DNA from: Candidatus Poribacteria bacterium
GTDB lineage: Bacteria; Poribacteria; WGA-4E; WGA-3G
DNA length: 64,000 bases
NCBI GenBank assembly: GCA_003635195.1
Contig: PYIY01000075.1
Span: 27,608-91,607 of the forward strand
Reading direction: 5' to 3'
Part shown: positions 5,611 to 59,789 of the stretch, one piece after another
How the letters are laid out: each line of letters starts with the position of its first letter
Position numbering within the stretch: the stretch's first letter is position 1
The notes under the pieces: model-generated
What the model was told of the DNA's origin: nothing
What the model saw: the letters and a program-made list of their open reading frames with translations, nothing else
Databases searched by the model: none
Made by a program: the position numbers and the translations under genes

Positions 5611-8600
5611 TTAAAGTTCCGCGCTGATTGTCATCTCTAAGCGGTGTTCAGGTTTGCGCTGCTTTGTGGAGAGCAGCCGGTAATTGAGGCGAAACAGTAG
5701 GTCTGTGAATTTTCGTAGCCTATAATCTGCTGTTGTGCGTACTTCGTGACTAATGCCCTCATAAAAAGTGTATTGCGCGAAGGGGATGCCACCGCTACTT
5801 TGACCGTAGCCGAGTTTATAGTTGAAAACGATGCGTCCTTTACCGATAAGCCTGTATGTGATTCGGTTTTCATAAGAGAAGGTGCGCGTTCTGGCTTCAG
5901 GTTCCTCGTCAAGTTGTTCCTCGTCGGTTGTCCGTTTATAGCCGCCAATACCGCTCCACTCCAGTGAGTTGTTCAGATCATATCGGAGGTTCAGTTCAGT
6001 TATCTGTTCAAGTTGACGGAGGTCTGATATAGGTGTAGCGGGAGGATCTCCCATCTTTTCGGTAGGATCGGTTCCCTGCGCGAGGTCCTCAAAATTGAAT
6101 TGGCTATACTTTTCATTTTCTCGACGTTGCTCCCAATTTGCTCTGACAGATAGGCGTTTCGTAGGGTTCACGGAGAAACTGACATCCCAGGTGTTGTGTT
6201 GTCTGTGGCGTTCTTGGTTATTAATTCGCTTGTTGAGCGTCTCTCCCATCCGGAAGTTAATTTCAAAACTGAATGCCGTTGAGGGGACAAATTCGAGTTG
6301 ATGATGTTGGTTCACCCGCCCAAAAAGTGTATCTGGCCCCTGTAGATTTTGGAGTAGATATAGAGAAACAGCGTCCTCTACCTCTTGTTCCTCTGTTAGC
6401 CAAAGTCGTGTTCGTCCTCTGAGTGCACTCAAAAACCACTCTAAACGGCTGTCAGCCATTGGCTCTCGGCTATCAGTAACAGGAGGTTTCTGGTTAACAG
6501 AAAACCCTCTTTGCTGATTGCTGACTGCTGACTGCTGATTGCTATCTTGCTGACTGCTGACTACTGAGGATTGACTGCTATTTCGTGTTGGACGCAAACT
6601 GTCGGGTTTCAGCATTGACTCACGTTGCTGCTGTTGCCGCGCTCTTGCACGCCGTGCGAAGTACTGACGCGGTTGAAAACGGATACGGAATTCCGCATCT
6701 ACCGCTGTTGTTGGCTTATCACCGACATTTTGGTAGATTTTGATGTAGGTGCCTTCCTCGGGATCTTCTACATAGTGCAGATCGTCCAATTTCACGTAAT
6801 AGCCTTCGCCAGGTTGAAGGAGAAGTCCGGTGTGTGGATGAATGTTGGTATAGATTTCGTGGCGTTGGCTTGTCAATTTTTTATCTAACTCGTAGGTGAG
6901 TTCTATGTCAATTGCCCGACTGAGTGGTGTCAATTGAAGGTTGATATCGGCGAGTTGCGTCGTCGTATCTGCGCCGATATCCGTGTGTGCCTTCAGCATT
7001 CGGCGAGCAAGGTTCGCACTCAGATTCACGCCGCCGCTGAGAAAAGATTTGTGTTGTGAAAAGAGACCGACTTTCCATGTTCGCGCTGTAGTGCTTCGCT
7101 GCCAATCGGATAGACCGATGGGTTGGTTGTCCACAGTGAGCAACGGCTCTTTCGCATAAGCCTCCTCAAGTTCGTAGCTGGTATTGACGGAGACCCAACT
7201 GAAATCAACGAGATTAATACGTCCAATCGCACGGTTCCGCTTTCGGTTGAGTGTCGCATTGCGTGCCTCGTTTGATTCCAATCTACCCAAAGTCCCAATA
7301 ATTCTGAACGGTCCGATCGGATAGGACAGGTTGCCCTCCTGTCGCGACTTTTGCTGCGATTCTGTCTGTGTTGAATCTTCACTCTCGACCCGTGAACTGC
7401 TCCGATAATCATCCCAACGGAAATTCGGCAACTTCCTTAGGAGCTGCGCGCCTTTAGAGGATGCCTTTTCTGACGCTATAGCTTCCTTCGGTCGTCCCGT
7501 TGTAAACCTGCTTTCTCGTGTGCGGGTAGCGATTACATTTCCACTGCCTGAACGCTGATTGAAGTTTACGCCCCAGTTGAAATTATCACGGATCGTTGCG
7601 TTGGTAGGAGTGGTTCTTTCAAATTGTTGGAAACCATCTGGTGAATCAGATCCTTCTGACTGACTGTTCTCACTGCGAAGCAGGCGTGCCGGCTGACGGC
7701 TGTTTTCCTCGCTCCTACCGACTCCGGCATTAACCGCGAACCAATCCGTCGGTATCACTCGGATGTCAAAGTTTGCGGTTCTTTCATCTCGGGCAATTTG
7801 TGAGTGTCGTGCAGTATCAAAGAGAAACGCATCATCAAAACCCTCTTTGGCGTATTGCGTTTCATAACGGGAACGGGAACGGTTACCACTTGATGCGCCG
7901 ACAGGTAGAAAATCGGCATCCATTGCGCGTATGTCAAAGTTTGTGTTCAATTTAGGTCGGAATTTCTCTGTCCATGTAGCGAAGTCCCAGTCCGCATAGC
8001 CGATCAGTTTCCACGCCTGACTCACCTCTTTACGGTCTACGGTGGAATAGGTGTTTTTATCAAGATTGCTGTAGGCGAGTTCACCTTCAATCCACGCTTT
8101 TTCGGTGATATTCACGCGACTTTCTACACCCCATACTGTATGTTTTTGCGGTGCCGTGAGGAGTGATCTGCCGTCTTCTTCAGGATCAAGGAGATTTTGA
8201 CGCAGTGCCTCCAGATCCGCGTCGCTGAGTTGGATTAAAGCCTGTTCAGGTTGGTTCAGGTCCGCCTCAACGGCATAAGAGGCACCGAGACTTATCCAGT
8301 CTCCGGGTAGTGTGAAGACGCTGCTGAGTCCGTAAAGATTCTGTTGATAGGCCCGTTCTTCAGGGATATATTCAAAGTCAATCCGAATTGTGTCGTTGCT
8401 TGTTATCAGGTGTTTGCTGTTGAATTCGACGATCGGATCCCCATATTCTCGGATGACGTAATCGTTGTTCTCACCGCGCCGCATCCGCTCGCCATTCAAC
8501 CAGACGATTTCACTCCCTGCTTTCACGATGACGTATTGCCCATCAACCGTAATCCGGTATTCGCTCCGTCCTTCTTCTCCACGAAGGACTAAACTTGTAG

Positions 8601-9486
8601 ACTGTCCTTTCGGGATAGCACTCGGAATGAGGTGAAATTTCGCCCACTTGAAATCGCCTTCGACTTGTACGCCTTCGAGCGCACGTGGGAAAAAGATAAA
8701 TTCCGAGGCACCGAGTGATCCCTCAAAGTCGCCTAATGTGCCTCTCATGTTCGGATGCGTGATACGAACCAATTTCTGATCAATGTCTTGGATATTCTCG
8801 GTTGTGCCTTCGGGTTGAATTGGTAAATCTTGGTCGGACAGCAGTGCAAGGACACTGATATTCTCGGAGACTTTACCCTCTACATTGACCCGGAGTTCCT
8901 GGTTCAGTGTCACGCCGCGCCCGCTGCCGACTGAGATACCGGATGTTTGACTTCCGGACACTTCTAATTGGCTATCGGGAGAATAGTTGTCAGTTGTCAG
9001 TTGTCGGTTGTCAGTTAAAAATCGGTTTGTCTCATCAGACTTCTCTTTCACTGATGACTCCTGCGCTGATGGAAACCGAAGGCTATCGGGGTTTTGCTCA
9101 CCGTAAAGGTCGCGTTTATAGACCTCTTTTATTGCGAAAGGCAGCGTGCGATAGGTTATCTTTAATCTATAGGGATCGGTAATGGAATCTTGCTTTACTA
9201 TAGTAATCTTTCCCGGATAGAAATCAATTTGATAGTCCACATTTCGGACAAGGGTTTTTCCGTTCGCCGCTACCAACTGTTCACTGTCAGGGAGAATCGG
9301 CGGGTACTTTACTGTAAATTCCAGTTCACTATCTTTCAGTTCAAAGGATTCTGTTTTCTGGAGAACGGAAAAGGTGGGAAGTTTGAGGACTTTAGTCTTG
9401 TCGTCAGCGGATTCTTGTGCCGGACTTTCGGGACAAGGTAGCAGGCACAAACAGAAGGAAACGAAAAAAAAGAGTCGGATAGGCAT
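5611..9486 (-). CDS. Very large secreted, outer-membrane beta-barrel-like protein (1291 aa), family unknown
   Basis: Signal peptide MPIRLFFFVSFCLCLLPCPESPAQ. The C-terminal two thirds are long, aromatic-rich and have an alternating pattern. Two low-complexity segments are encoded by family A repeat DNA. Confidence 0.6.
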   Translation of the reverse strand: MPIRLFFFVSFCLCLLPCPESPAQESADDKTKVLKLPTFSVLQKTESFELKDSELEFTVKYPPILPDSEQLVAANGKTLVRNVDYQIDFYPGKITIVKQDSITDPYRLKITYRTLPFAIKEVYKRDLYGEQNPDSLRFPSAQESSVKEKSDETNRFLTDNRQLTTDNYSPDSQLEVSGSQTSGISVGSGRGVTLNQELRVNVEGKVSENISVLALLSDQDLPIQPEGTTENIQDIDQKLVRITHPNMRGTLGDFEGSLGASEFIFFPRALEGVQVEGDFKWAKFHLIPSAIPKGQSTSLVLRGEEGRSEYRITVDGQYVIVKAGSEIVWLNGERMRRGENNDYVIREYGDPIVEFNSKHLITSNDTIRIDFEYIPEERAYQQNLYGLSSVFTLPGDWISLGASYAVEADLNQPEQALIQLSDADLEALRQNLLDPEEDGRSLLTAPQKHTVWGVESRVNITEKAWIEGELAYSNLDKNTYSTVDRKEVSQAWKLIGYADWDFATWTEKFRPKLNTNFDIRAMDADFLPVGASSGNRSRSRYETQYAKEGFDDAFLFDTARHSQIARDERTANFDIRVIPTDWFAVNAGVGRSEENSRQPARLLRSENSQSEGSDSPDGFQQFERTTPTNATIRDNFNWGVNFNQRSGSGNVIATRTRESRFTTGRPKEAIASEKASSKGAQLLRKLPNFRWDDYRSSSRVESEDSTQTESQQKSRQEGNLSYPIGPFRIIGTLGRLESNEARNATLNRKRNRAIGRINLVDFSWVSVNTSYELEEAYAKEPLLTVDNQPIGLSDWQRSTTARTWKVGLFSQHKSFLSGGVNLSANLARRMLKAHTDIGADTTTQLADINLQLTPLSRAIDIELTYELDKKLTSQRHEIYTNIHPHTGLLLQPGEGYYVKLDDLHYVEDPEEGTYIKIYQNVGDKPTTAVDAEFRIRFQPRQYFARRARARQQQQRESMLKPDSLRPTRNSSQSSVVSSQQDSNQQSAVSNQQRGFSVNQKPPVTDSREPMADSRLEWFLSALRGRTRLWLTEEQEVEDAVSLYLLQNLQGPDTLFGRVNQHHQLEFVPSTAFSFEINFRMGETLNKRINNQERHRQHNTWDVSFSVNPTKRLSVRANWEQRRENEKYSQFNFEDLAQGTDPTEKMGDPPATPISDLRQLEQITELNLRYDLNNSLEWSGIGGYKRTTDEEQLDEEPEARTRTFSYENRITYRLIGKGRIVFNYKLGYGQSSGGIPFAQYTFYEGISHEVRTTADYRLRKFTDLLFRLNYRLLSTKQRKPEHRLEMTISAEL
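6492..6583. repeat. Family A element, half copy (A1), inside the 1291-aa CDS
   Basis: aaaaccctcttt is followed by the 7-nt units gctgatt gctgact gctgact gctgatt gctat. This parallels aaacctcttt aactgat aactgat aactgat aactattt at 16317-16353. Confidence 0.65.
8983..9025. repeat. Family A arm (A2) inside the 1291-aa CDS
   Basis: The sequence atagttgtcagttgtcagttgtcggttgtcagttaaaaatcgg is the same arm seen at 22315 and 58652. Confidence 0.7.
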
Positions 9487-9502
9487 ATTGGCTGTCGGGG
9501 GA

Positions 9503-9632
9503 AATGGCTATCGGCTATCAGCAGTCAGCAAAGACGCAAGCGTTACAGAACGGCTTTTTTCTTTACCGGCAGCCGAAAGGTTTTTCATGCCTCGCAGTGA
9601 GAGAAAACCGCCCTGAGAGCCGATGGCTATTT
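9503..9632. repeat. Family A element (A3, subtype with AAAGACGCAAGC core)
   Basis: The arms atggctatcggctatcagcagtcagc and gagccgatggctat flank aaagacgcaagcgttacagaac..ccgaaaggtttttcatgcctcgcagtgagagaaaaccgccctga. It is near-identical in layout to 20908-21024 and overlaps the stop codon of the NHL gene. Confidence 0.8.
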
Positions 9633-10781
9633 TTGACGGAAGACTTGGAACACCTTTATATCGTTCGCTTCCGCGTCACTCACAAAGACACGTCCACTTT
9701 TCGAGACGGCGATGCCTATCGGTTCAAGGAGTGTAGAGGTGGTAAATTCTGTGATGCTCTTACCATCAGGAGCGAAGACTTGGATACGTCGATTACCGCT
9801 GTCCGTTACGTAAAGATAATTCCAGTCATCTAAGGCGATGCACTTCGGTTCTCGCAGCTGCCCGAGTCTGTCTCCTTCACTGCCCCAAGCACTGATAGGA
9901 TTGCCGCTAAAGTCGTATTTTTTGATGAGATGGTTGCCTGTATCGACGACGTAAACACTCCCGTGGGTATCAACACCGAGGTCTGTAGGATTCCAGAGTT
10001 GTTCTGTACCACTCCCGAAGCTGCCGCGTGCGACAACTGACACCCCCGCGACGTTGAATTCAATCCAGCGATGATTGCCGGTATCTACAATATACACCTC
10101 GCCATTGCGTCCGATACCGATGCCTTCGGGCTGGTCTAACAGGGTGCCTTCAATACTCTGGCTAAGCGGATAAAAAATTTGATCAATGAAATTGCAGTAT
10201 TGTACCCGATTGTTCCGCGTGTCTACGACATAGAGGTGGCGGTAACTCCGTTGGAAACTCAATGCTATATCTGATGGATGATCAAATTCGCCTGTCTGCC
10301 ACCCACGTCCTCCGAATTCGGTGATGTAATTTCCAGCGGCATCAATAACTTGTACCCGATTGTTCCCGGCATCGGCGATGTAGATTCTATCTGATTCATC
10401 TATTGCGAGTCCCAAGGGCATCTGAAATTCACCCGCGCCTTGTCCGGCAGTGCCGAGGGTTTTGACGTAGCGAATACCGACGATAGGGAGCGGTTCGCGT
10501 TCACGGTTCGATGGGAGAATTTCAATCTGACCCTTCCCTGTAACAGGTGGGGCTCCCGGCGGCGCAACTTCACCTTCGGGGACGGCACAACTCAAACAAA
10601 GGGAAACCAAGAGAAAAAAACAGAAGGAGTAGTTAACAGTGGCCAGTGGCCAGTAACCGGTAAAGAAGCTTCCCTTCTGGTAACTGGTAAGCGGGGTCCC
10701 GATATTAGCCGCGTTGCACCTTAAATTTGAAAACGAACGTCGTTTGTTGGTCATTGAACTCACTTGTGACTCCCGGCACAA
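9627..10781 (-). CDS. NHL-repeat beta-propeller lipoprotein (start codon uncertain)
   Basis: Six NHL-type units are present (IYIADAGNNRVQVID, LYVVDTRNNRVQY, VYIVDTGNHRWIEF, VYVVDTGNHLIKKYD, LYVTDSGNRRIQVF, VFVSDAEANDIKVF). There is a lipobox LCLSC. The only ATG starts (10781, 10754) overlap the upstream gene by 77 or 50 nt. Confidence 0.75.
   Translation of the reverse strand: MCRESQVSSMTNKRRSFSNLRCNAANIGTPLTSYQKGSFFTGYWPLATVNYSFCFFLLVSLCLSCAVPEGEVAPPGAPPVTGKGQIEILPSNREREPLPIVGIRYVKTLGTAGQGAGEFQMPLGLAIDESDRIYIADAGNNRVQVIDAAGNYITEFGGRGWQTGEFDHPSDIALSFQRSYRHLYVVDTRNNRVQYCNFIDQIFYPLSQSIEGTLLDQPEGIGIGRNGEVYIVDTGNHRWIEFNVAGVSVVARGSFGSGTEQLWNPTDLGVDTHGSVYVVDTGNHLIKKYDFSGNPISAWGSEGDRLGQLREPKCIALDDWNYLYVTDSGNRRIQVFAPDGKSITEFTTSTLLEPIGIAVSKSGRVFVSDAEANDIKVFQVFRQK
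10631..10692. repeat. Family A-like arm pair (A4) within the 5-prime end of the NHL ORF
   Basis: The sequence agttaacagtggccagtggccagtaaccggtaaagaagcttcccttctggtaactggtaagc has the same CCAGT-type units as 17077-17104. Confidence 0.55.
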
Positions 10782-11361
10782 CGATCCGTAAGTTGCTATA
10801 CTTAATACTCCGTTTACGGAAATAGAGGTAGAATCTCGCGTATTGCCTCGGCATCACGGTTGTTTTCTCAATGTCTTCTCTGGGGAGTACTGCTGGATCA
10901 CCTTGTATTCTGATGGACTTGTCCCATCGGAACACTTCTGCCGCAAATTCAGGAGGCAGAGGCGGTCTAAAATTCTTTTTTAGATAAAAGGATTCCTGCG
11001 ATTTGTCAATAGGTTTCGTAAAGTTCCCTGTCCCATCAAGCATCAGGCAATCCTTCTTTTTGAAGGAGATCCAGTGGTTGGTCCCGTTATAGATAAAGAC
11101 ACCGAACGCATCAACTGCTTTCACATCGTTGAGCGGGACCACCATTACCTTAATGCCGTTTTTGGCATAACCGACGGTGCCTGTCTGCCGCATAATATGC
11201 GCATCCGGATCAAAGACTGGGACAATCACTTCTGGTTGGAAGGTATCTTTTATGAAATCTGGCACCTTTGCACAACTTAAGGGAATGAATGCTAAACAGA
11301 GTGCCGCTAGAATTTGTAAGACAGACACCCGATAATGTATCTCATTTTTCATTTTTTTCAA
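10705..11361 (-). CDS. Hypothetical lipoprotein
   Basis: 218-aa ORF with signal peptide and lipobox (LAFIPLSCAK). I recognised no family. Confidence 0.6.
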   Translation of the reverse strand: MKKMKNEIHYRVSVLQILAALCLAFIPLSCAKVPDFIKDTFQPEVIVPVFDPDAHIMRQTGTVGYAKNGIKVMVVPLNDVKAVDAFGVFIYNGTNHWISFKKKDCLMLDGTGNFTKPIDKSQESFYLKKNFRPPLPPEFAAEVFRWDKSIRIQGDPAVLPREDIEKTTVMPRQYARFYLYFRKRSIKYSNLRIVVPGVTSEFNDQQTTFVFKFKVQRG

Positions 11362-11582
11362 GTTCCTTTATTGAAGTCATATTGAGTAAAACACGAGAAT
11401 TTAGTCCGATAGGGAACGAAAGGGAGCTCATTTGTGTCCTTTTCTCTCCGCCTCAGATCCCCATTTGATTTGAATTCTTACCTCCTACTCGCTATGGGTT
11501 CAATAAGAAAAGCACGCATGCTTTTTACCCAAGCTTGAGGGGCTTCTATTCTGAGCTGATCTAAGAGGCGAAGTTCTTCTTT

Positions 11583-12206
11583 TTAGAGCCAGCGTTCTTC
11601 TTGTTCTATTGTAGCCTGTAGCAGGTTTCTTGTTGTTTCAAATGCCTGTTGATTACCAGGACCCGGAAATAGAAAATACATTGCTGCCGACTTAGCGACT
11701 ACTTGTATAGCACGCTCAAGTGTTACAATTCCGCCTCGCCGCATTCGATTAGACTCTACGATGTAACGAACCTGTGGGATGTCTCCGAATTGTTGAAAGA
11801 ACTTAGCTTCGCGATGTTTTTTGCGTAACGCTTCGTCTGCTCCGTCAAAGGCCCAACCTGGGGGAACATTGAGGTTCATGAGTTCTTTAACTTCCGCGTC
11901 TGTTACCCTGATCCAATCTTTGTCTTTCAACTTTTCCCAATCTTCGTCTTTTAAATTTCCCCAGTCTTTGAGCGTTAAGTGTAGCCATTGTTCAGCGTCT
12001 TTCAAGTCTATGTCTGTCAATTGTGGTAATTGATCATCAGATTGTAGGGGGTATTCATCGAACGTATTATAGTTCGGTTTGATTACTTCTTGCTCGTCTT
12101 CTGTGTCTCCACAACCGAAACAGAGCAGGAGACTGAGGATAGCTGTCAGATAAAAAAAGTTGGAAAGGATAAATCCGTTTTTCATGGTGTGCCTCCATTG
12201 GTCCAA
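11583..12206 (-). CDS. Hypothetical lipoprotein
   Basis: 207-aa ORF with signal peptide and lipobox (LLCFGCGD). It contains a KDxDW-rich repeat segment. Confidence 0.55.
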   Translation of the reverse strand: MDQWRHTMKNGFILSNFFYLTAILSLLLCFGCGDTEDEQEVIKPNYNTFDEYPLQSDDQLPQLTDIDLKDAEQWLHLTLKDWGNLKDEDWEKLKDKDWIRVTDAEVKELMNLNVPPGWAFDGADEALRKKHREAKFFQQFGDIPQVRYIVESNRMRRGGIVTLERAIQVVAKSAAMYFLFPGPGNQQAFETTRNLLQATIEQEERWL

Positions 12207-15694: not shown

Positions 15695-15827
15695 TAGTTT
15701 TTAGTTATCGGTTGTTGGTTATCAGTTAAGAGGATGATCTGATTCATCAAGTCTTTCTGTTAACTGAAAGCTGAAAGATTTTTCATGCCTCGCAGTGAGA
15801 GAAAATCGGACTGAAAACTGATAACTA
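15695..15827. repeat. Family A element(s) (A5)
   Basis: Pattern tagtttttagttatcggttgttggttatcagttaagagg...ctgttaactgaaagctgaaag, followed by tttttcatgcctcgcagtgagagaaaatcggactgaaaactgataacta. Confidence 0.8.
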
Positions 15828-15833
15828 TTAAAC

Positions 15834-16193
15834 CTATAAGAAATGACCGATGGCTTCTGCTTCTGTATTGTAGCAGTCAAAAATCGTCATCAGTTTAGCC
15901 ATAACAATAAGACTTCTGATATTGCCGCCCAGATTCAGCAGCACCACGCGTCCCTCATTCCGGCGGATAGTCGTATAAGCAGCGACGAGTATCCCTAAGC
16001 CGGTGCTATCCATCATCTGGACGCGCTCCATGTTGAAAATTAAATTAAGATTTTCTCCGTGTTCTGCCTCGCTACTGAGCGTTTGAATCTGTTGATCAAT
16101 GATGGATTTAAGTGCCAAGGCATCTGCCCCAATAATTTTTCCCTCAATATCTAAGATTGTAATACTGCCTTTGTTTCGAACATTGACTTGCAT
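15834..16193 (-). CDS. STAS-domain anti-sigma-factor antagonist (RsbV/SpoIIAA-like)
   Basis: 119 aa with the motifs ITILDIEGKI and MDSTGLGILVAAY and the typical length. Confidence 0.85.
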   Translation of the reverse strand: MQVNVRNKGSITILDIEGKIIGADALALKSIIDQQIQTLSSEAEHGENLNLIFNMERVQMMDSTGLGILVAAYTTIRRNEGRVVLLNLGGNIRSLIVMAKLMTIFDCYNTEAEAIGHFL

Positions 16194-16208
16194 GATAATT
16201 CCTTAGCG

Positions 16209-16350
16209 TAGTTGTCAGTTTGCCTTGCAGTGAGAGTCGTCAGTGGTCAGTTAAGAGAGGTCTTGGGGTGTCAAGCTCTCTGGTGGCATCTATAAGTTGA
16301 TGGAATACTACAGCAAACCTCTTTAACTGATAACTGATAACTGATAACTA
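16209..16350. repeat. Family A element (A6), full copy
   Basis: The left arm is tagttgtcagtt, followed by the box tgccttgcagtgagag. The inner stem is cagttaagagaggtctt...aaacctctttaactg, and the right arm is aactgataactgataactgataacta. Confidence 0.85.
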
Positions 16351-16351
16351 T

Positions 16352-17047
16352 TTATGTCTTATATTTAACCATTTTGATGATAGTGCCGTTGGCTTCGTAA
16401 GTAACAGAGTCCATACAGGCTTCCATCAAGAATAAACCTCTCCCACTGCTTTTGAGCAAATTCTCTGGGTCAAGTGGGTCCGCAACTTCTTTGCGTGTGA
16501 ATCCCTCGCCTTCATCCTCAACGATAATTGTGAGTTTATCTTCATCGAGAAGGAACTGCATAATCGCCTTTTTGCTTGGATTCTCTTTATTTCCGTGTTT
16601 GATCGCGTTTGTACCTGCCTCAATGGCAGCAAGGTTAATCTGCTCTTGGATCTCCTCAGCGAAATCCGAATCTTTCAAGACCTCAGTAACGACGACATCA
16701 AGGAGGTAAACATGTCGCATTGAGCTTGGGAGAGAAAGCGTAATAACTTGTTCAATTTCGGGCGCTTTGTGCGTGGATGCCTCACCCTCGTCGATAGTGT
16801 TGATGGTGAGTCCATCTTCATTAAGAATTAATTGAAAAATTGTTGATTTGCCCGGATCCTCTCTATCGCCGTGTTCTTCGATCGCGTTTGTACCCGCTTC
16901 AATGGCAGCAAGGTTAATCCGCTCTTGGGTGCCTTCATCAAAGTCCGCCTCTTTTAGGATTTCAGTGACAACAGCCCTGAGTAGATAAACATGTCGCATT
17001 GAGCTTGGGAGAGAAAGCGTAATAACCTGTTCAGTTCTCTCGCCCAC
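16352..17047 (-). CDS. RsbW/SpoIIAB-like anti-sigma serine kinase (HATPase_c) with an internal 93-aa tandem duplication
   Basis: It has a GTG start. EQVITLSLPSSMRHVYLL..INLAAIEAGTNAI occurs twice, 279 nt apart. Only the second copy continues into DEGEGF and SGRGLFLM (G boxes). Confidence 0.8.
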   Translation of the reverse strand: MGERTEQVITLSLPSSMRHVYLLRAVVTEILKEADFDEGTQERINLAAIEAGTNAIEEHGDREDPGKSTIFQLILNEDGLTINTIDEGEASTHKAPEIEQVITLSLPSSMRHVYLLDVVVTEVLKDSDFAEEIQEQINLAAIEAGTNAIKHGNKENPSKKAIMQFLLDEDKLTIIVEDEGEGFTRKEVADPLDPENLLKSSGRGLFLMEACMDSVTYEANGTIIKMVKYKT

Positions 17048-17076
17048 GTTTGAAGCTCCTTCTCTATGATCAAGAA

Positions 17077-17164
17077 GTTACCAGTAACCAGTGGCCAGTT
17101 ACCAGAAAGAGACTTTGGAACTATCCAAAACCTCTGAAAACTGGAAACTGGAAACTGGAAACTG
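17077..17164. repeat. Family A element (A7)
   Basis: The left arm is gttaccagtaaccagtggccagttaccag. The core is aaagagactttggaactatccaaaacctct, and the right arm is gaaaactggaaactggaaactggaaactg. Confidence 0.8.
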
Positions 17165-20867: not shown

Positions 20868-20907
20868 GTTTCCAAGAATAGTGCCGGACAGCGCGCTTTC
20901 TGGGCGA

Positions 20908-21024
20908 ATAGTCGTCAGCCATCAGCTGTCAGCAAAGACGCAAGCTTTACAGAACACCTCTTTTCTTTACTGATAGCCGAAAGGTTTTTCGCAGAAAAAC
21001 CGCCCTGACAACCGACTGCTATTT
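20908..21024. repeat. Family A element (A8, AAAGACGCAAGC subtype)
   Basis: Pattern atagtcgtcagccatcagctgtcagc aaagacgcaagctttacagaac..ccgaaaggtttttcgcagaaaaaccgccctgacaaccgactgctattt. It is collinear with 9503-9632. Confidence 0.8.
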
Positions 21025-22314: not shown

Positions 22315-22414
22315 TAGTTGTCAGTTATCAGTTGTCAGTTTGCCTTGCAGTGAGAGTTAAGAGACCTCTTGTGGCAGGTAAATATGTTGTTACTGCCACA
22401 GCAGACTTCTTAAC
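22315..22414. repeat. Family A element (A9)
   Basis: Pattern tagttgtcagttatcagttgtcagtt tgccttgcagtgagag ttaagagacctctt gtggcag..ctgccac ..cttcttaac. It starts 1 nt after the rsmG start codon. Confidence 0.85.
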
Positions 22415-24304: not shown

Positions 24305-24371
24305 TTTAGTAGTTGTTGGTTGTTAGTCGCTAACGGGCGGGGAAACCCCGCCCCTACGGGGTTCGTGCCCG
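24305..24371. repeat. Family A-like arm fused to a GC-rich palindrome
   Basis: The arm tttagtagttgttggttgttagtcgctaac is followed by gggcgggg-aaa-ccccgccc ctacgggg, which is related to the palindrome at 3843. Confidence 0.5.
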
Positions 24372-26013: not shown

Positions 26014-26110
26014 GCCATCAGTCATCAGCCATCAGTCATCAGTAAAAGAGGTATTTGGTTATGCGAAAACCTGTTTGCTGATGGTCTCCGACGGCTGACA
26101 GCCGACAGCC
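26014..26110. repeat. Family A-like element (A11)
   Basis: Pattern gccatcagtcatcagccatcagtcatcagt aaaagaggtatttgg...aaaacctgtttgctgatgg..gctgacagccgacagcc. Confidence 0.65.
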
Positions 26111-28407: not shown

Positions 28408-28676
28408 GGCTATGCACCCAGAGTTGACAAGCTTCTCCAGGCGTTGCCCGCGCCGTTAGCTCAGGTCAGGCACCCTTGCGTCACACGAACAACTCATCTA
28501 CCGCTGCTTCCTTCCGGACCTGACGGGGTTCAACAAGCATTCGTTGCTCAAGACCCAACCCTCAACACTACGTACGTGGGACAGGCCCCACAGAAACAGG
28601 CCGCATCCTGGGGATTCAGTCCTGCTATAGCGGATTGCAGATACAGGGCACCGCTACCTCCCCACTTAGCATAGCC
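28408..28676 (-). ncRNA. ffs: Signal recognition particle RNA, long (Alu-domain-containing, Bacillus-type) form
   Basis: The minus strand reads GUCAGGUCCGGAAGGAAGCAGC (28503-28524), which is the conserved domain IV motif. The 5-prime part GGUAGCGGUGCCCUGUAUCUGCAAUCCGCUAUAGCAGG resembles the B. subtilis scRNA Alu domain. The terminal helix pairs GGCUAUGC with GCAUAGCC. It lies upstream of dnaX, as in the Bacillus-type arrangement. Confidence 0.85.
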
Positions 28677-28697
28677 AAGGTATTAGATATAAGAAAC

Positions 28698-28789
28698 TGG
28701 CGGAGAGAGTGGGATTCGAACCCACGGTACTGCAAAACAGCACACATGATTTCCAGTCATGCCAGTTCAACCAACTCCTGCATCTCTCC
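28698..28789 (-). tRNA. tRNA-Ser(GGA), CCA encoded
   Basis: The acceptor stem is GGAGAGA/UCUCUCC. The anticodon loop is CUGGAAA between CAUGA/UCAUG. It has a long variable arm and the T loop GGUUCGAAUCC. Confidence 0.9.
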
Positions 28790-28795
28790 GTTTTA

Positions 28796-28920
28796 TAGTT
28801 GTCAGTTAGAGGAAGTTAACAGTTGTCAGTACGATTTTTTCTGCAAAAAAAATCTTTCAGTTCTCAGTTAAGAGACTTTGGAACTATCGAAAACCTCTTG
28901 TAACTGATAACTGTTAACTA
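28796..28920. repeat. Family A element (A12) between two tRNA genes
   Basis: Pattern tagttgtcagtt..cagttgtcagt..ttttttctgcaaaaaaaatctttcagttctcagttaagagactttggaactatcgaaaacctcttgtaactgataactgttaacta. Confidence 0.8.
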
Positions 28921-28927
28921 TCATGTA

Positions 28928-29000
28928 TGGAGCAGACGGGATTTGAACCCGTGACCTCATCCGTGCGAGGGATGCACTCTCCCAACTGAGCTACTGCCCC
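28928..29000 (-). tRNA. tRNA-Ala(CGC)
   Basis: It starts GGGGCAGUAGCUCAG and has G3:U70. The anticodon loop is CUCGCAC, and no CCA is encoded. Confidence 0.9.
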
Positions 29001-29088
29001 AGAGTTTATAAAATTTATCGGGTTTACAAAACCCTCCTACAGCATCTTGCGATGACTGATTATCGTTCACCTTGAAAATATCAAAAAA

Positions 29089-29173
29089 CGGAGAGAGTGG
29101 GATTCGAACCCACGGTGACTTGCGCCACAACAGTTTTCGAGACTGTCCAGTTCAACCACTCCTGCATCTCTCC
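29089..29173 (-). tRNA. tRNA-Ser(CGA)
   Basis: The acceptor stem is GGAGAGA, the anticodon loop is CUCGAAA, and it has a long variable arm. Confidence 0.9.
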
Positions 29174-29251
29174 TTATGATGCGTCATAACGATAGCGTCG
29201 TATACCAGAGCCATTCAATTTGAAGTCGCGATTCGGAGATCGCTCCTACTT

Positions 29252-29710
29252 TTACAGTTTATGGCGGCGTCCCTGAAAAAAGGATTTGAGCAGCGCACTG
29301 CTCTCATCTGCTAACACACCACTTACCAATTCAACCCGATGGTTTAGCCGTTCATCTTGGAGAATATTATAGAGTGTGCCGGCTGCCCCAGATTTCGGGT
29401 CTGCCGTGCCGTAAACCACCTTCGGGATGCGTGCTAAGACGATAGCCCCTGCACACATTGGGCACGGTTCTAACGTCACATAAAGCGTTGTGTCTGTAAA
29501 TCGCCAGTTCCCAATTTTTTCGGATGCCGCTTGTATAACAAGCATTTCTGCATGAGCGATAGGGCTACCAGACTGTTCACGCAGGTTGGAGGCTTCCGCG
29601 ATGCGGACCTCGTTGCTAACGAGTACTGCCCCAACGGGTACTTCACCGTTCTCGGCGGCTTGCTTCGCTAGCTCAAGTGCGTGTCGCATCCAGAAAAGAT
29701 CGCTATCCAA
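29252..29710 (-). CDS. tadA: tRNA adenosine(34) deaminase
   Basis: It has the deaminase motifs HAEMLVI and LEPCPMCAGAI. The TTG at 29710 or the ATG at 29689 could be the start. Confidence 0.9.
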   Translation of the reverse strand: MDSDLFWMRHALELAKQAAENGEVPVGAVLVSNEVRIAEASNLREQSGSPIAHAEMLVIQAASEKIGNWRFTDTTLYVTLEPCPMCAGAIVLARIPKVVYGTADPKSGAAGTLYNILQDERLNHRVELVSGVLADESSALLKSFFQGRRHKL

Positions 29711-29735
29711 GTTATGTCCAACAAATGGCTTATGA

Positions 29736-29809
29736 AGCGCCTGAGAGGATTCGAACCCCTGGCCTTCTGATCCGTAGTCAGATGCTCTAATCCACTGAGC
29801 TACAGGCGC
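29736..29809 (-). tRNA. tRNA-Arg(ACG)
   Basis: It starts GCGCCUGUAGCUCAGUGGAUUAGAGC and the anticodon loop is CUACGGA. It ends 26 nt upstream of the tadA ORF. The 3-prime boundary is accurate to about 1 nt. Confidence 0.85.
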
Positions 29810-29885
29810 GTATTGTACGGTATTGAAGCGTTAGGCAGCTACGCCTTGCCTATACGTTTTTGTGTCTGATTTGTTGCTTTAAAGA

Positions 29886-29970
29886 CGGAGAGGGTGGGAT
29901 TCGAACCCACGATGGCTTGCGCCATAACTGCTTAGCAGGCAGTCCAGTTCAACCACTCCTGCACCTCTCC
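29886..29970 (-). tRNA. tRNA-Ser(GCU)
   Basis: The acceptor stem is GGAGAGG, the anticodon loop is CUGCUAA, and it has a long variable arm. Confidence 0.9.
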
Positions 29971-29974
29971 ATAA

Positions 29975-30062
29975 TGGCGGTGGGAGTAGGATTCGAACCC
30001 ACGATGGCTTGCGCCATAACGGTTTTCAAGACCGCCGCTTTCGTCCACTCAGCCATCCCACC
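29975..30062 (-). tRNA. tRNA-Ser(UGA), CCA encoded
   Basis: The acceptor stem is GGUGGGA/UCCCACC and the anticodon loop is CUUGAAA. The variable arm and T arm are almost identical to those of Ser(GCU). It lies 4 nt from the neighbouring tRNA. Confidence 0.85.
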
Positions 30063-43167: not shown

Positions 43168-43274
43168 CACAGGCTAACGGTTTCCTATGCTACAAGTGAT
43201 ACTTTGCCTAGACTAACGGTCTCCTATGCTACAAGTGATACTTTGCACAGGCTAACGGTTTCCTATGCTACAGG
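43168..43274. repeat. 39-bp direct tandem repeat, 2.7 units
   Basis: Units start at 43168, 43207 and 43246. The unit is cacaggctaacggtttcctatgctacaagtgatactttg with a few substitutions. It lies about 185 nt upstream of the oxidoreductase gene. Confidence 0.85.
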
Positions 43275-46113: not shown

Positions 46114-47379
46114 TTAAAAATTGCGATTATGCGTCCTCTGACAAACAACGATGTTTTCTTCGTGCATCGTTGTGGAGGTTTCACCTGCAACGTTGGAAGG
46201 GCTGTTCTTCTTCGGCATCCGCTTGTTTGGTATGTTTCTGACGATGGTCGCCTTATGCGTAAAACCGTGCTGACGAAAGGCATCAACGATAAATTCGTCG
46301 GTCGGCAGCATAACCTCTTTGACTCGGCGATTGCCTACGACATAACAGATTGTAGCATGTCGTGAAAGTACTTGAACTATTGAATTGATGCTACACCTAA
46401 GGTCAATGTAAAATGCTGACACCTCCCGCGCTCGCTTTTCATCGACTAAACGGATTTTGTCAATAGCGGGTGATATTGGAGAATCCTTCAATATTTTTTT
46501 TGAATGCTGTCCGCCCATTGCGAGTTTGTCAATTTTGCGAGCATTCGGCAAACCTATCCATTCCGCTGCCAGCCGCGAATATTGTCCGTACGCCACCGTG
46601 GTCTGTGAATCTCCATACGGCGGAGATGTAATCACGACATCATAGCCTCCGAGAGGTCGAGGCATTGGGAGTTCACCTTGGACTGTGTTTGCTTCGGATA
46701 CCAATACCTCAACGTTTTTCCGTTTTTCGAGGAACGCTGCTAAGCCGTGCCGATTTCTGCTGAGTTTCTTGCTAAAGATACCGAACACGTCAGGTTTGAA
46801 GCCTTCAAGTTTTTCGACAGGCATGCGATATAATTTAAACTCTCCGTTCCGCGTATACGATACCTCTCGAACCGTCTCTGAAAACGCGACCAGTATGAAG
46901 TTTCGGACGGCTTCATCTTCTACCTTGTTAATCCAAGCGCGTAGATACGCGAGATATCTAATAACTTCTTCGGAGAACCAATACGCAAGGTTCGGAATCT
47001 CAGGAATCGGAGCGTCAGGGACCCTGCCTTCTTGGAATTCAACCTGAAAGAGATCATCATTTAACTTGCCGAGTGTTTCATCTAAAGTCGATGGACAAAT
47101 CTGTGTTGACTTAGCAGTTGCTATCAGGCGTACGAGAGGGTTAATATCACATCCAACACTGTGCATGCCGCATAGGGATGCTTCAACCAGCGAGGTGCCG
47201 GTGCCACAATAGGGGTCAAGCAGCCATCCACCGTCTGCGCCATACGTTTTAAGAAGTTTCCGCGCAATTTGCGGAATCATCATTGCCGGGTACGTGTGGA
47301 AGCAGTGCGTGTATTCTTTGGTATCAGATTCTCGAAAGTCCCACGATTCGTCTTTATATTTTAGATTGTCGGTGCTCAT
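46114..47379 (-). CDS. Type II DNA methyltransferase (exocyclic amino MTase, N4-C or N6-A; SPPY motif)
   Basis: Motif I is LLDPYCGTGTSLVEA and motif IV is VVITSPPYGD. Its start overlaps the upstream REase stop as ATGA. Confidence 0.8.
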   Translation of the reverse strand: MSTDNLKYKDESWDFRESDTKEYTHCFHTYPAMMIPQIARKLLKTYGADGGWLLDPYCGTGTSLVEASLCGMHSVGCDINPLVRLIATAKSTQICPSTLDETLGKLNDDLFQVEFQEGRVPDAPIPEIPNLAYWFSEEVIRYLAYLRAWINKVEDEAVRNFILVAFSETVREVSYTRNGEFKLYRMPVEKLEGFKPDVFGIFSKKLSRNRHGLAAFLEKRKNVEVLVSEANTVQGELPMPRPLGGYDVVITSPPYGDSQTTVAYGQYSRLAAEWIGLPNARKIDKLAMGGQHSKKILKDSPISPAIDKIRLVDEKRAREVSAFYIDLRCSINSIVQVLSRHATICYVVGNRRVKEVMLPTDEFIVDAFRQHGFTHKATIVRNIPNKRMPKKNSPSNVAGETSTTMHEENIVVCQRTHNRNF

Positions 47380-48065
47380 ATCAGTTTTTCTCGTTTACCA
47401 AAGCATAGATTCCAAAATCTTTCGTCAATTCTGAAACCCGTTCCGTGATTTCTGACGACCCTATTTTCTCGCAGATGCATTCTAACATCAACGATTATGA
47501 TGTCTTTCTTAATGAGATCCAAAAAATTATCCTCGTCTGGTTCGGTTAATAGATATGCCTCCTTGAACCAAAATTCTTCCTTTTGATCTGAATTAATACG
47601 AGTGTCTGCATTCACAATAATCAGGGAAGGCATCTTACTTCTGAATCTATCAATCAAACGTTCTCCCGACCACTCAGCAACAAGGGTTCCATCTACATGA
47701 TAAAGCCGGACGATTTCATGCTCAACTGTTACGAAAAGTCCCTGGTTATTCGGTTTGCTGTTGGCAGTGCAGTATAGGGATGGTCGACCATTTGTATCTA
47801 TATAGCCATATTTCTCAATCAATTCCTTCGTTTTTATTTTCCAAACCCCACGATTGAAGGTAAACATGGTTACCCGATTGTTGACTCCAATTCTCTGAGA
47901 TTTCAGTTCTATATCTCCAAAATCAGGAGTTTTAAGGTTATTTTCCTCCAATCCAAGTAAAGTTTCCAATGTATAGCCTATGCCAGTGTTGTTTTTTCGT
48001 AGTGAAACAACATAGCCCATCTGGTTAATTTCAGATAGTTTGTCTTTTAATTGGGCTATATTCAT
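47376..48065 (-). CDS. MvaI/BcnI-family type IIP restriction endonuclease
   Basis: TGIGYTLETLLGLEENNLKTPDFGDIELKSQR and FWFKEAYLLTE ... IIIVDVRMH ... RNHGTGFRI are collinear with BcnI as I recall its sequence. Confidence 0.7.
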   Translation of the reverse strand: MNIAQLKDKLSEINQMGYVVSLRKNNTGIGYTLETLLGLEENNLKTPDFGDIELKSQRIGVNNRVTMFTFNRGVWKIKTKELIEKYGYIDTNGRPSLYCTANSKPNNQGLFVTVEHEIVRLYHVDGTLVAEWSGERLIDRFRSKMPSLIIVNADTRINSDQKEEFWFKEAYLLTEPDEDNFLDLIKKDIIIVDVRMHLRENRVVRNHGTGFRIDERFWNLCFGKREKLI

Positions 48066-53764: not shown

Positions 53765-55447
53765 CTATAAGGAAATCGTTTCTGGTGGGTTGTCGCGTGT
53801 AATGAGGAGGCGTCGCTGCCATTCGGTATCATCCTGTGCCGGAAAATCGGCGCGATAGTGTGCACCGCGACTCTCTGTCCGAACAAGAGCAGATTGTGTT
53901 ATCATCAAAGCGACGTTGAGCATATTAACTGTTTCAATCGTTGCGACATCTGCGACTTCTGGACGCGTTAGCACGTTCCCTAAACTTTCCATTAAGTCTT
54001 GCAATTCGGCGAAGGTTTCTTGTAAACCTTCGCCGTTTCGTTCGATGCTAACGTTCTCCCAGAGTGCCTCTCGAATGACCTTTTTGATCGGTTCTATAGA
54101 ATAGTTTTCGGTTTTCAGTTTTCGGTTTTCAGTTAAAGCGTCTCTCGTGGCAGTCCCAGACCCCTCTTGTAACTGACTACTGATAACCGATGGCTGATAA
54201 CTCTTTGCGAATGTTGCAGCATTTGTGCCAGCGCGGGCCCCATAGACGAGGCATTCAAGCAGCGAGTTGCTTGCTAAACGATTCGCCCCGTGGACCCCTG
54301 TACATGCCACTTCTCCACAAGCATAAAGCCCTTTGAGGTTGGTTTGTGTATCTGTATTTGTGCGGATGCCGCCCATCATGAAGTGTGCGCCAGGACGGAC
54401 GGGGATTAAGTCCACGTTAATATTGAGACCATAGTGTTTTGTGGTCTCGGAGATGGTCGGAAATCGTTCAAGGATGAAGTCTTCGGATTTATGGGTAATA
54501 TCGAGGAAAACGCAGGGGAATTCGGTCAAGTCCATCTCGTTTTGAATCGCACGGCTCACGACATCCCGTGGGGCAAGTTCACCTTTCTCGTGGTATTTCT
54601 CCATAAAGCGTTCACCACGAATGCTCAAAAGTTTGCCGCCTTCGCCTCTAACGGCTTCTGAGATCAAGAAATTAGGTGCCCCATCCAAGAAGAGCGTTGT
54701 TGGGTGGAACTGGACGAATTCCATATCTATCATTTCGCATCCGGCGCGCCAGGCCGCAGCGAATCCGTCGCCGGTTGCTACTTTTGGATTAGAAGTACAT
54801 GGGTAAATCCGCCCAAGCCCGCCGGTCGCGAGAATTGTGGCTTTGGCGCGAAGACAGACGACTTGTTCCTCTACAATTGCCGTGACCCCGTAGCATGTGG
54901 GCGTATTTTCTCTTTCCAAATTGACATCCGCGTCAGTCAGTAAATCAATGGCGAAAGTGTTTTGCAGGACGTGAATCCGTTCCGTATTTAGCACGCGCTG
55001 GATAAGGACATCTGTCGTTTCACGCCCTGTTGCGTCCCCTTTGTGTACAATTCGACGGCGGCTGTGGGCAGCTTCTCGTGTAAAGCGGGGCAGCGTTCCT
55101 TCCCAATCAAAGTTCGCGCCCCAGTCTAACAGTTCTGCAACGCGTGGAATGCCTTCAGATACCATCATCTCAACCGCTTCCACATTACAAAGACCGGCAC
55201 CCGCGACACAGGTATCCTTTATGTGCAAGGCAATTGTGTCATCAAGGTTCATAGCAACAGCGATTCCACCTTGGGCGTAGTGGGTATTGCTCTCTGTCAA
55301 TGTAGTTTTGGTAATTAAGGTTACATCGGCGTGTTCACTCGCAGCGAGGGCAGCGCGCAACCCAGCAGCACCACTCCCGATAATGAGGACATCGGTGTCC
55401 CAAGTGAAATGCCGTTCTGGATTCATCGCAGATATTGGATTTTCCAT
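53765..55447 (-). CDS. nadB: L-aspartate oxidase carrying an in-frame repeat-derived insertion
   Basis: It has the FAD motif DVLIIGSGAAGLRAAL, the motifs HYAQGGIA and RGEGG, and a C-terminal ESRGAHYR. Confidence 0.9.
   Translation of the reverse strand: MENPISAMNPERHFTWDTDVLIIGSGAAGLRAALAASEHADVTLITKTTLTESNTHYAQGGIAVAMNLDDTIALHIKDTCVAGAGLCNVEAVEMMVSEGIPRVAELLDWGANFDWEGTLPRFTREAAHSRRRIVHKGDATGRETTDVLIQRVLNTERIHVLQNTFAIDLLTDADVNLERENTPTCYGVTAIVEEQVVCLRAKATILATGGLGRIYPCTSNPKVATGDGFAAAWRAGCEMIDMEFVQFHPTTLFLDGAPNFLISEAVRGEGGKLLSIRGERFMEKYHEKGELAPRDVVSRAIQNEMDLTEFPCVFLDITHKSEDFILERFPTISETTKHYGLNINVDLIPVRPGAHFMMGGIRTNTDTQTNLKGLYACGEVACTGVHGANRLASNSLLECLVYGARAGTNAATFAKSYQPSVISSQLQEGSGTATRDALTENRKLKTENYSIEPIKKVIREALWENVSIERNGEGLQETFAELQDLMESLGNVLTRPEVADVATIETVNMLNVALMITQSALVRTESRGAHYRADFPAQDDTEWQRRLLITRDNPPETISL
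54102..54202. repeat. Family A element (A13), complete copy inside the nadB CDS
   Basis: Pattern tagttttcggttttcagttttcggttttcagtt aaagcgtctctcgtggcagtcccagacccctctt gtaactgactactgataaccgatggctgataact. Confidence 0.8.
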
Positions 55448-55556
55448 GTTTTTAAGTTACCTTGCGGTGGGTCAAGGGCTTTGATGTATCCAAAGTTTGT
55501 GTACAAATGCCGTCCCTCCATTTCATTACGGGCTTTTATCAGAATTCCCAGAAAGT

Positions 55557-58651: not shown

Positions 58652-58736
58652 TAGTTGTCAGTTATCAGTTGTCAGTTATCGGTTAAGAGATTTTCGTTTA
58701 AGCACAGTTTCCTCTTGTAACTGATAATTGATAACC
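58652..58736. repeat. Family A element (A14)
   Basis: Pattern tagttgtcagttatcagttgtcagttatcggttaagagattttcg..tttcctcttgtaactgataattgataacc. It starts 5 nt after the valS start codon. Confidence 0.85.
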
Positions 58737-59626: not shown

Positions 59627-59659
59627 ATTATAGTAGAGCCCGTAATTATTTGCACACAT

Positions 59660-59733: not shown

Positions 59734-59789
59734 TTATTTTCGGATTTTACTATAATAGTCCTGAAAACGCATCCACTCTCGTCGGAAGT

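Follow-up and report, generated by a model that had tools for sequence, protein, structure and literature searches.

Sequences of the short tandemly repeated repetitive (STRR) type in Cyanobacteria reportedly consist of heptanucleotides, as in STRR1 (CCCCAGT) and STRR3 (CAACAGT), and are said to invade the P12 helix in RNase P RNA and make it longer, closely related strains bearing unrelated STRRs. Direct repeats of the heptamer TAACTGA occur in Beggiatoaceae, Cyanobacteria, and Bacteroidetes with a patchy distribution (MacGregor 2015, Front Microbiol 6:1397; PMC4679880). In “Ca. Maribeggiatoa,” most TAACTGA arrays end about 1 nt before start codons; read forward they place stops in all three frames, and read in reverse they are open and give LSVISYQ-like peptides in open reading frames (ORFs) (PMC4679880). 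One inverted set was seen among 170, related heptamers were seldom repeated, and Poribacteria were not among the taxa reported (PMC4679880). Here, palindromic elements with arms of tandem heptamers are described from a 64,000-nt stretch (the window) of a Candidatus Poribacteria metagenome-assembled genome (contig PYIY01000075.1, GCA_003635195.1), in which an earlier note had listed 16 copies. The elements belong to a known but poorly understood class of repeats, and on the best reading their behavior is that of selfish foldback DNA and not of a new regulatory RNA.

The Poribacteria elements share with the TAACTGA repeats an identical unit, present as (TAACTGA)x3.7 at positions 16324 to 16349, a mostly intergenic location, and forward arrays that end 0 to 10 nt before start codons lacking a Shine-Dalgarno (SD) sequence. 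Unlike those direct repeats, nearly all Poribacteria arrays form inverted pairs capable of folding into hairpins, and the elements have many unit variants, a conserved inner stem, and nested modules. They resemble cyanobacterial STRRs in being dispersed tandem heptamers in noncoding DNA with a CAGT-containing unit and, as is said of the RNase P repeats, in that unrelated repeats occupy the same site in close relatives. They differ from STRRs in host and in a TTAAGAG/CTCTTAA core that occurs in no cyanobacterial locus fetched, and the classic STRR1 to STRR3 (CCCCAGT, TTGGTCA, CAACAGT) have no tandem copy in the window. The STRR analogy, previously called loose, is nevertheless direct, because the arm unit is the TAACTGA heptamer, which belongs to the STRR class. 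The claim that the family is undescribed holds for the TTAAGAG/CTCTTAA composite, which was not found in the searchable literature, but not for the arm unit (PMC4679880). No paper linking Poribacteria with heptamers, miniature inverted-repeat transposable elements (MITEs), or such palindromic repeats was found in the same literature. New here are the Poribacteria-specific inner stem with its nested small modules and three in-frame copies, in nadB and in the gene for a 1291-aa protein, which form hypervariable linkers and are patchily distributed among relatives.

Anatomy and distribution of the heptamer elements

By inspection, period-7 arrays are present at all 16 listed loci, and Tandem Repeats Finder located such arrays at 14 places in the window. 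At lag 7, a lag scan returned 7 arrays under strict and 12 under relaxed criteria, compared with 0 to 2 at lags of 4 to 12 and 0.05 to 0.3 in shuffled sequences; 7 is the sole enriched period. At least 25 different heptamer units are in use. CAGTNNNCAGTNNNCAGT occurs seven times and the arm plus inner stem YRGTNNTCRGTTAAGAG five times in the window, each against 0 expected; TAACTGATAACTGA is present twice, and the variant units CAACTGA, TAACCGA, and AAACTGA are found elsewhere.

Copies are 62 to 170 nt long, and their arms are inverted repeats of each other, made of tandem 7-nt units in the fixed order 5'-(CAGTNNN)n ... (NNNACTG)n-3'. A CAGT-type arm is paired with an ACTG-type arm in 13 of the 16 copies. 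Between the arms lie an inner stem that is short and conserved, TTAAGAG(G) / (C)CTCTTAA, and a variable apex that takes nested small palindromic modules, so that a typical copy reads TAGTTGTCAGTTATCAGTTAAGAG ... CTCTTAACTGATAACTGATAACTA. TA...TA termini (TAGTT...AACTA) are found in about half of the copies. The arms are of low complexity, and their register varies.

Unlinked copies have stretches of 76 to 96 nt in common (79 to 81% identity), as well as identical modules of 16 to 25 nt. The subtype previously placed at 9530 and 20934 corresponds to 96 nt common to 9491-9586 and 20895-20990 (81% identity). The 16-nt box TGCCTYGCAGTGAGAG has four copies against 0 expected, as listed earlier except that the second starts at 15786 and not at 15787 (Table 1). 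The core GACTTTGGAACTATCNAAAACCTCT, formerly placed at 17109, at 28871, and, in diverged form, at 59586, is exact at 17111 and 28874, with one diverged copy. Neither the exact box nor the exact core was matched in the first 126 fetched loci; diverged versions occur in loci L047, L127, and L128, and in another Poribacteria genome, modules of the elements occupy unrelated loci (L047, L069).

Most copies fold as arm-to-arm hairpins (z of -3 to -8), as predicted. The three focal copies, between 15695 and 17164, fold at z = -3.3 to -8.2 on both strands and most of the others at -2.5 to -6. Two loci, 8983-9025 and 24305-24333, are one-armed (the latter is unfolded), and 22315-22414 lacks one outer arm; 59531-59626 reaches only about -1.3. 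Rfam covariance models gave no family on any copy, either at the gathering score or at E<=1.

The arm extends well beyond Poribacteria. In a genome-collection scan with the exact 18-mer of the commonest arm, AACTGATAACTGATAACT, at least 8 phyla were represented among the matches listed: many Cyanobacteria, Beggiatoaceae (Parabeggiatoa, Thiomargarita), and Bacteroidota, with further matches in Planctomycetota, Acidobacteriota, Dialister, Anaerolineaceae, Verrucomicrobia, and Poribacteria. Among these matches, the taxa agree with the published distribution (MacGregor 2015). A complementary CAGT array lies upstream of the TAACTGA array in 26/90 of the sampled cases in Cyanobacteria, 2/3 in Poribacteria, 3/4 in Dialister, and 0/7 in Beggiatoaceae. 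Within 300 nt in the fetched loci, CAGT precedes ACTG 31 times and the opposite order occurs once. The inner-stem hairpin GTTAARAG...CTYTT(G)TAAC had 16 matches in 259 kb of Poribacteria loci (both strands), whereas 865 kb from other phyla yielded none. When plasmids were searched with BLAST, the TAACTGA arm alone was recovered, on cyanobacterial plasmids and with no annotation.

Turnover at orthologous sites and copies within genes

Comparison of syntenic loci of relatives (L001 to L006, L127 to L129, and L130 to L149), which had been proposed as a check, showed that orthologous sites hold another element, what is left of one, or sequence without relation to it. In the window, the RsbW-to-STAS gap with its element measures 158 nt, compared with 22 nt in L127; L129 and L130 hold a different heptamer element there, and L128 has 208 nt of unrelated sequence. 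Between PP2C and RsbW, about 52 nt present in five relatives (L127 to L131) have been replaced by the window element. The outer ends of the STAS-to-AccD-like element are retained in four lineages, but its interior differs; in the gap separating the NHL gene from the 1291-aa ORF, the window and L128 share an arm type that is not the one found in L127 and L129. Element presence varies in the ABC-to-rpoN, rpoN-to-hpf, and hpf-to-valS gaps: two tandem copies lie upstream of valS in L001 and L003 and none in L005 and L006, and the rpoN-to-hpf copy is not in L001 or L003. Furthermore, a 12-nt box insertion in a TTTTTC-TGCG-AAAAA hairpin sets the window copies at 9503 and 15695 apart from their orthologues; the L128 orthologue of the former lacks the box.

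Unit number changes in one arm only, from two in the window to five in L127 to L129 for the 10631-10692 element and between 2.5 and 4.5 among orthologous copies near nadB. At several sites, including nadB and PP2C-to-RsbW, sequence was replaced rather than cleanly interrupted. A search for target-site duplications, also suggested earlier, found no clean case. The sole short allele, TAG-TCATC-TA-CGC in L127, resembles both ends of a deleted element and is likely a remnant, which weakens the candidate TA duplication at RsbW-to-STAS and leaves the TA...TA termini as only weak evidence for duplication. In distant relatives, the same operon gaps contain unrelated heptamers, GTGTTAG, ACGTAAT, and CCGTGAG, with complementary partner arms.

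All copies had been taken as intergenic, but three lie in frame inside ORFs (54102-54202, 6492-6583, and 8983-9025); the second of these is present as listed except that its true extent starts at about 6440. The nadB copy is located between the FAD-binding and C-terminal domains. In NadB homologues, this linker is either element encoded (SYQ.SVIS.QL...LTDNRKL.T.NY) or unrelated and Pro rich, and at the DNA level an element of about 101 nt substitutes for about 86 nt of unrelated linker between conserved flanks. The element-encoded form is found in 40 of 120 homologues, and a neighbor-joining tree of the rest of the protein requires at least 14 state changes. In an alignment to Escherichia coli NadB (1CHU), the insert region is seen only as a shorter linker; the AlphaFold NadB model is poor (mean pLDDT, 39.6) and uninformative on the insert. 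The 1291-aa product of ORF 5611-9486 is a conserved Poribacteria protein in which both element sites are hypervariable linkers: the 6440-6583 site reads NGRQSSVISGQLRDG..SLTDNRKLITVNY in many homologues and is unrelated in others, and the 8983-9025 site is heptamer encoded in all. The coding copies use the unit variants AAACYGA and CAACCGA, which evade the stops that perfect TAACTGA repeats would introduce. The NHL ORF (9627-10781) and the gene calls in L127 to L129 also read through a heptamer element (10631-10692), and the annotated NHL N terminus is therefore probably an artifact, created by the repeat's own open reading frame.

Rickettsia palindromic elements of ~100 nt reportedly occur in frame in conserved genes, within tolerant protein regions, as well as between genes. 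The in-frame copies in nadB and the 1291-aa protein gene resemble them in behavior only: no sequence relationship is expected, the host lineages are unrelated, the Rickettsia arms are not tandem heptamers, and the Poribacteria nadB element replaces a linker of similar length rather than being added.

Table 1. Heptamer elements and arrays of the window, with heptamer arrays of distant relatives
Feature	Position (window unless a locus is named)	Location	Sequence features	Folding z
Element in ORF	6440-6583	In frame in 1291-aa ORF 5611-9486 (-)	CAGCAGT/CAGCAAT-type arms; inner stem AAAGAGGG...CCTCCTGT	
One-armed array	8983-9025	In frame in ORF 5611-9486	AGTTGTC x4.6 on + strand; read as FLTDNRQLTTDNY	
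Element	9503-9632	NHL gene / 1291-aa ORF gap	GGCTATC/GATGGCT-type arms; box at 9588-9603; terminal TAG is NHL stop codon	-3.1/-2.4
Element	10631-10692	12 nt past stop of ORF 10705-11361	CCAGTNN/ACTGGNN-type arms	
Focal copy 1	15695-15827	STAS to AccD-like gap	TAGTT...AACTA outline; inner stem TTAAGAGG/CTTTCTGTTAA; GATTTTTC..GAAAATC hairpin; box at 15786-15801	-3.4/-4.1
Focal copy 2	16209-16350	RsbW-like to STAS gap; begins 1 nt past stop codon	One arm exact (TAACTGA)x3.7 at 16324-16349; other arm holds box at 16221-16236	-3.3/-3.95
Focal copy 3	17077-17164	PP2C to RsbW-like gap	CCAGTNN / ACTGGAA x4.4 arms; core GACTTTGGAACTATCCAAAACCTCT at 17111-17135	-8.2/-7.7
Element	20908-21024	STAS to histidine kinase gap	Subtype of 9503-9632 (81%/96 nt)	-2.7/-3.8
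Element	22315-22414	mnmG-rsmG gap, mnmG stop codon to rsmG ATG (0 nt)	One outer arm missing; box at 22341-22356	
Short one-armed array	24305-24333	Flush with mnmG ATG	ACTAACAACCAACAACTACTAAA on sense strand	Unfolded
Element	26014-26110	ybaB-recR gap	GCCATCAGTCATCAG / GACAGCCGACAGCC arms	-4.7/-4.0
Element	28796-28920	tRNA-Ala / tRNA-Ser spacer, filled	Core at 28874-28898; GATTTTTTCTGCAAAAAAAATC hairpin	-3.7/-3.2
Element in gene	54102-54202	In frame in nadB (53765-55447, -)	Encodes SYQPSVISSQLQEGSGTATRDALTENRKLKTENY	
Element	58652-58736	Ends 4 nt before valS ATG		-6.1/-4.8
Composite element	58745-58914	Begins 1 nt past hpf stop codon	Second palindrome TTGACCAAGAACTCG..CGAGTTGTTGGTCAA nested in one arm	-5.8/-3.8
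Degenerate copy	59531-59626	rpoN to hpf gap	Diverged core; GGATTTTTCCTGCGAAAAAAATCC hairpin	About -1.3
Heptamer arrays of distant relatives	L137 1765-1808 and 2290-2324; L138; L149 545-570			

Several neighboring features were recorded in passing. The RsbW-like anti-sigma kinase gene at 16352-17047 contains an internal tandem duplication in which 16598-16757 and 16877-17036 are 82% identical and two HATPase_c_2 stretches result; distant relatives L135 to L148 encode a single-domain version. A large (Alu-domain) signal recognition particle RNA lies beside a cluster of six tRNAs, four of them tRNA-Ser, at 28410-30062. Tandem repeats of 39 nt are located at 823-902 and 43168-43272. An MvaI/BcnI-type endonuclease and an N4/N6 DNA methylase are paired between gatB and an ABC ATPase gene (46114-48065); this variable defense islet occupies the site in both the window and L006, and L001 lacks it.

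Intercistronic placement and arm pairing

The copies sit in minus-strand operons (STAS-histidine kinase-PP2C-RsbW-STAS-AccD-like, mnmG-rsmG, dnaX-ybaB-recR, and rpoN-hpf-valS-nadB; Pfam assignments), and none was found among the plus-strand genes of the window. The statement that they fill nearly every minus-strand gap was too strong, as a tally based on the ORF list gives about 10 of about 17 gaps of ≥20 nt as occupied; each of the four gaps in the STAS-to-AccD-like array does carry an element, as stated. On the sense strand, copies start 0 to 12 nt past the upstream stop codon, one copy itself providing that stop. Their ends lie 0 nt (rsmG, mnmG), 4 nt (valS), 10 nt (AccD-like), and 15 nt (STAS) from the next start, in keeping with the proximity to start codons (1 to 5 nt) and stop codons described before. 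No SD is visible for the genes adjoined by arrays (rsmG, mnmG, valS, and AccD-like). The start-proximal arm often exceeds its partner in length and is then partly unpaired; it provides stop codons in each of the three frames together with an A-rich, SD-less leader up to the start codon. Element-free native leaders finish in a similar AACTAAAAAA-ATG.

Intrinsic terminators were rejected, since the sense-strand hairpins are followed by A-runs and a start codon and not by a U-tract, and no terminator-like U-tract site on the minus strand coincided with any element in a scan of the window. A separate leader motif, TTGACC..ACCGCAAGG(T/A)AA..TAAAAA, lies directly before the nadB and valS starts (window 55457-55468; L005, L006). 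It may be a promoter for very short or leaderless mRNAs, and only one exact copy is present in the window.

Placement between stop and start codons could indicate functional intercistronic RNA hairpins, serving as stabilizers, processing sites, or coupling devices and kept by selection on structure. The base of the stem would juxtapose stop and start, and a terminating ribosome would melt the stem and free the next start. The spans from 0 to 12 nt past stops to 0 to 15 nt before starts, the strong folding z-scores, the outer ends conserved in four lineages at STAS-to-AccD-like, and the matching of arm types within copies all fit this explanation, and the earlier note had likewise proposed selection on structure rather than sequence. 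Arm pairing was counted over 744 aligned arm positions of 24 elements, a set that includes orthologues and is not independent. Watson-Crick pairs make up 537 positions (72%), with 137 transitions and 70 transversions among the remainder. On the mRNA-sense strand, 87 A·C mismatches stand against 50 G·U (p = 0.002, with the same nonindependence of orthologues), so that folding is poorer for the transcript strand than for the antisense strand. In RNAfold, the G·U strand asymmetry differs from copy to copy; the pooled counts, which favor the antisense strand, argue against selection on mRNA structure and do not identify a functional strand. All arms have a CAGT/ACTG core in common, and matching within copies holds for three arm types. 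The mean duplex energy of a copy's own arms (-19.8 kcal/mol) is close to that of arms taken across copies (-17.0 kcal/mol; permutation p = 0.03).

Given the turnover, the independent changes of the two arms, the 72% pairing, and the excess of A·C over G·U, selection on structure is poorly supported; it acts on the arms only weakly, if at all. The mismatch pattern is the signature of inverted repeats decaying on an A-rich coding strand, not of helices maintained by compensation. Functional hairpins also fit poorly with a close relative that has a 22-nt spacer with the same SD and start, with the occupation of one site by different elements, and with copies inside coding regions and between tRNAs, and we consider them unlikely.

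An alternative focuses on the units rather than the stem: CAGTNNN/NNNACTG units could bind a single-strand nucleic-acid-binding protein (S1, Csp-like, or other), making the start-proximal array an SD-independent initiation or regulatory module and the hairpin partner a by-product or switch. Such a role has been proposed for TAACTGA repeats (MacGregor 2015; PMC4679880). The unit and its position before start codons are as in Beggiatoaceae, the genes adjoining arrays lack a visible SD, the proximal arm is often longer and partly unpaired, and element-free leaders end similarly. In addition, the arm is found mainly in Cyanobacteria and Bacteroidota among the matches listed, and both groups use few SD sequences. 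However, heptamer variants are many and distant relatives use other heptamers, arrays are also found past stop codons, in tRNA spacers, and within ORFs, close relatives differ in whether their housekeeping genes carry one, and no candidate for the binding protein was identified. Protein-binding arrays therefore appear improbable as the primary explanation.

Foldback DNA and its alternatives

We give about an even chance to the reading that the elements are noncoding selfish foldback (MITE-like) repeats of the STRR/TAACTGA class that form a Poribacteria-specific family. Copies would be dispersed to unlinked sites and gained, replaced, and deleted among close relatives, and their arms would expand and contract by slippage in 7-nt steps. 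They would persist only where they do little harm: in operon spacers from stop to start codon, in tRNA spacers, and in disordered protein linkers, where unit variants (AAACYGA, CAACCGA) would keep the frame open. In transcripts the palindrome would fold back and bring its flanks together, allowing operon expression to survive. The start-proximal arm, with its three-frame stops and A-rich SD-less leader, might then have been co-opted for initiation or coupling, comparable to the proposal for Beggiatoaceae; this is plausible because native leaders without an element look similar. Spread could involve a transposase acting in trans or recombination, and it is by inference only that we assign a mode of spread or any effect at the RNA level.

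The dispersal of related copies, their turnover at orthologous sites, slippage in one arm, and the box insertion distinguishing copies 9503 and 15695 argue for selfish foldback DNA, as does an arm-pairing pattern of decay rather than maintenance (72% Watson-Crick, transitions to transversions of 137:70, A·C exceeding G·U). The strict polarity (31 versus 1) is expected from defined ends or common descent. The TA...TA termini, the occurrence of the full inner-stem hairpin in Poribacteria loci alone among those scanned, and the lack of coinciding terminators count on the same side.

MITEs and foldback elements include Nezha of Nostocales and the Drosophila FB elements, which have inverted arms of short tandem repeats. 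The Poribacteria elements are similarly small, noncoding, and dispersed, with terminal inverted repeats, polymorphic presence, nested insertions, variable arm length, and TA...TA in about half of the copies. Unlike MITEs, their arm sequence is variable, and neither a consistent target-site duplication nor an autonomous partner was found. Pfam detected no transposase domain in the window ORFs and none was found in the fetched loci; arm pairs lying 0.5 to 3 kb apart in 1.2 Mb of loci flank ordinary genes, and none encloses an autonomous ORF of 1 to 1.5 kb.

The small dispersed repeats of Nostoc are reportedly another family of this general kind. REP/REPIN-RAYT systems also comprise short extragenic palindromes (Bertels & Rainey 2011, PMC3116915). 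Like both, the Poribacteria elements are short palindromes abundant between genes and nested or clustered; unlike REP/REPIN, in which palindromes of 20 to 40 nt with a conserved head are associated with a RAYT (Y1 transposase) gene, they have no GTAG-type head, are longer, and have periodic arms. No Y1_Tnp match, as would mark a RAYT, was found among the window ORFs with Pfam.

Other palindromes occur nearby. A separate insert of ~130 nt (59626-59757), with arms TATTATAGTAAAATCCG.. / ..CGGGCTCTACTATAATA, lies beside a heptamer element and is not in L001 or L003. Its junctions, TAT-TA-[GTAAAA..CTCTAC]-TA-ATATTAA, fit a TA target duplication, and for this reason it is taken as a MITE from a different family. 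An inverted repeat (11368-11506) with 34-nt arms, TTATTGAAGTCATATTGAG.. / ..GGGTTCAATAA, and no heptamer periodicity lies in the gap separating ORFs 11583-12206 and 10705-11361. In L128, the GalK-to-ROK gap has an insert of ~87 nt (6722-6808) with terminal inverted repeats CTGCTTCGCAGTGAGAAC / GTTCTCGCTGCGAAGCAC that is not in the window. Because the 16-nt box resembles these termini, it may, judging from sequence likeness, represent a lone terminus belonging to a second small mobile element.

Several observations weigh against selfish foldback DNA. Neither a transposase nor another autonomous partner was found in the window or any fetched locus, and no clean target-site duplication was seen, with the “empty” L127 site resembling a deletion remnant. 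Near-identical copies were not seen, the best pair being 81% identical, and the recurrence of start-codon adjacency across phyla hints at function. Furthermore, distant relatives build the same architecture from GTGTTAG, ACGTAAT, and CCGTGAG in the same operon gaps, which fits an in situ process better than a sequence-specific transposase.

Such a process would involve intergenic hairpins that gain 7-nt arms by slippage and hairpin-templated repair or gene conversion, with no transposition. Variation in unit number is common, elements often replace sequence rather than insert cleanly, and the same box change at two loci of one genome resembles gene conversion, all of which would follow, as would the lack of a transposase and of target-site duplications among the results. 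Among the long simple repeats of prokaryotes, heptamers are also the most frequent (Mrazek 2007, as reported in a citing paper). In situ growth does not readily account for elements of ~100 nt, including nonrepetitive cores, common to unlinked loci and genomes, nor for the strict arm polarity and the lineage-specific, conserved inner stem. We rate it as a rather doubtful origin for the family that is kept alive because unrelated heptamers build the same architecture in distant relatives. Least probable, and in our view quite unlikely, is that heptamer hairpins in at least 8 phyla are made or maintained by one dedicated, transferable mechanism serving SD-independent intercistronic coupling, which may be a heptamer-reading single-strand nucleic-acid-binding protein or hairpin-templated 7-nt expansion. 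If it were true, the stem would join stop and start codons, the proximal arm would give three-frame stops and an unstructured A-rich leader, and Poribacteria, for which many close long-read genomes exist and the core is lineage specific, would offer the system for working it out.

Overall, the observation of a heptamer-armed family is confirmed and its earlier interpretation partly supported. The elements have practical consequences: they inflate ORF calls, as at the NHL N terminus, create hypervariable protein linkers, and are likely to break short-read assemblies. STRR/TAACTGA heptamer repeats have been known for >30 years. The Poribacteria elements extend them to an uncultivated phylum of sponge symbionts and reveal a hairpin organization with fixed arm polarity, both there and in about 30% of sampled cyanobacterial arrays. 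They turn over fast at orthologous sites, even in the conserved L-aspartate oxidase. As hundreds of closely related Poribacteria genomes exist, gain, loss, and replacement can be mapped to infer the mechanism by which these repeats spread.

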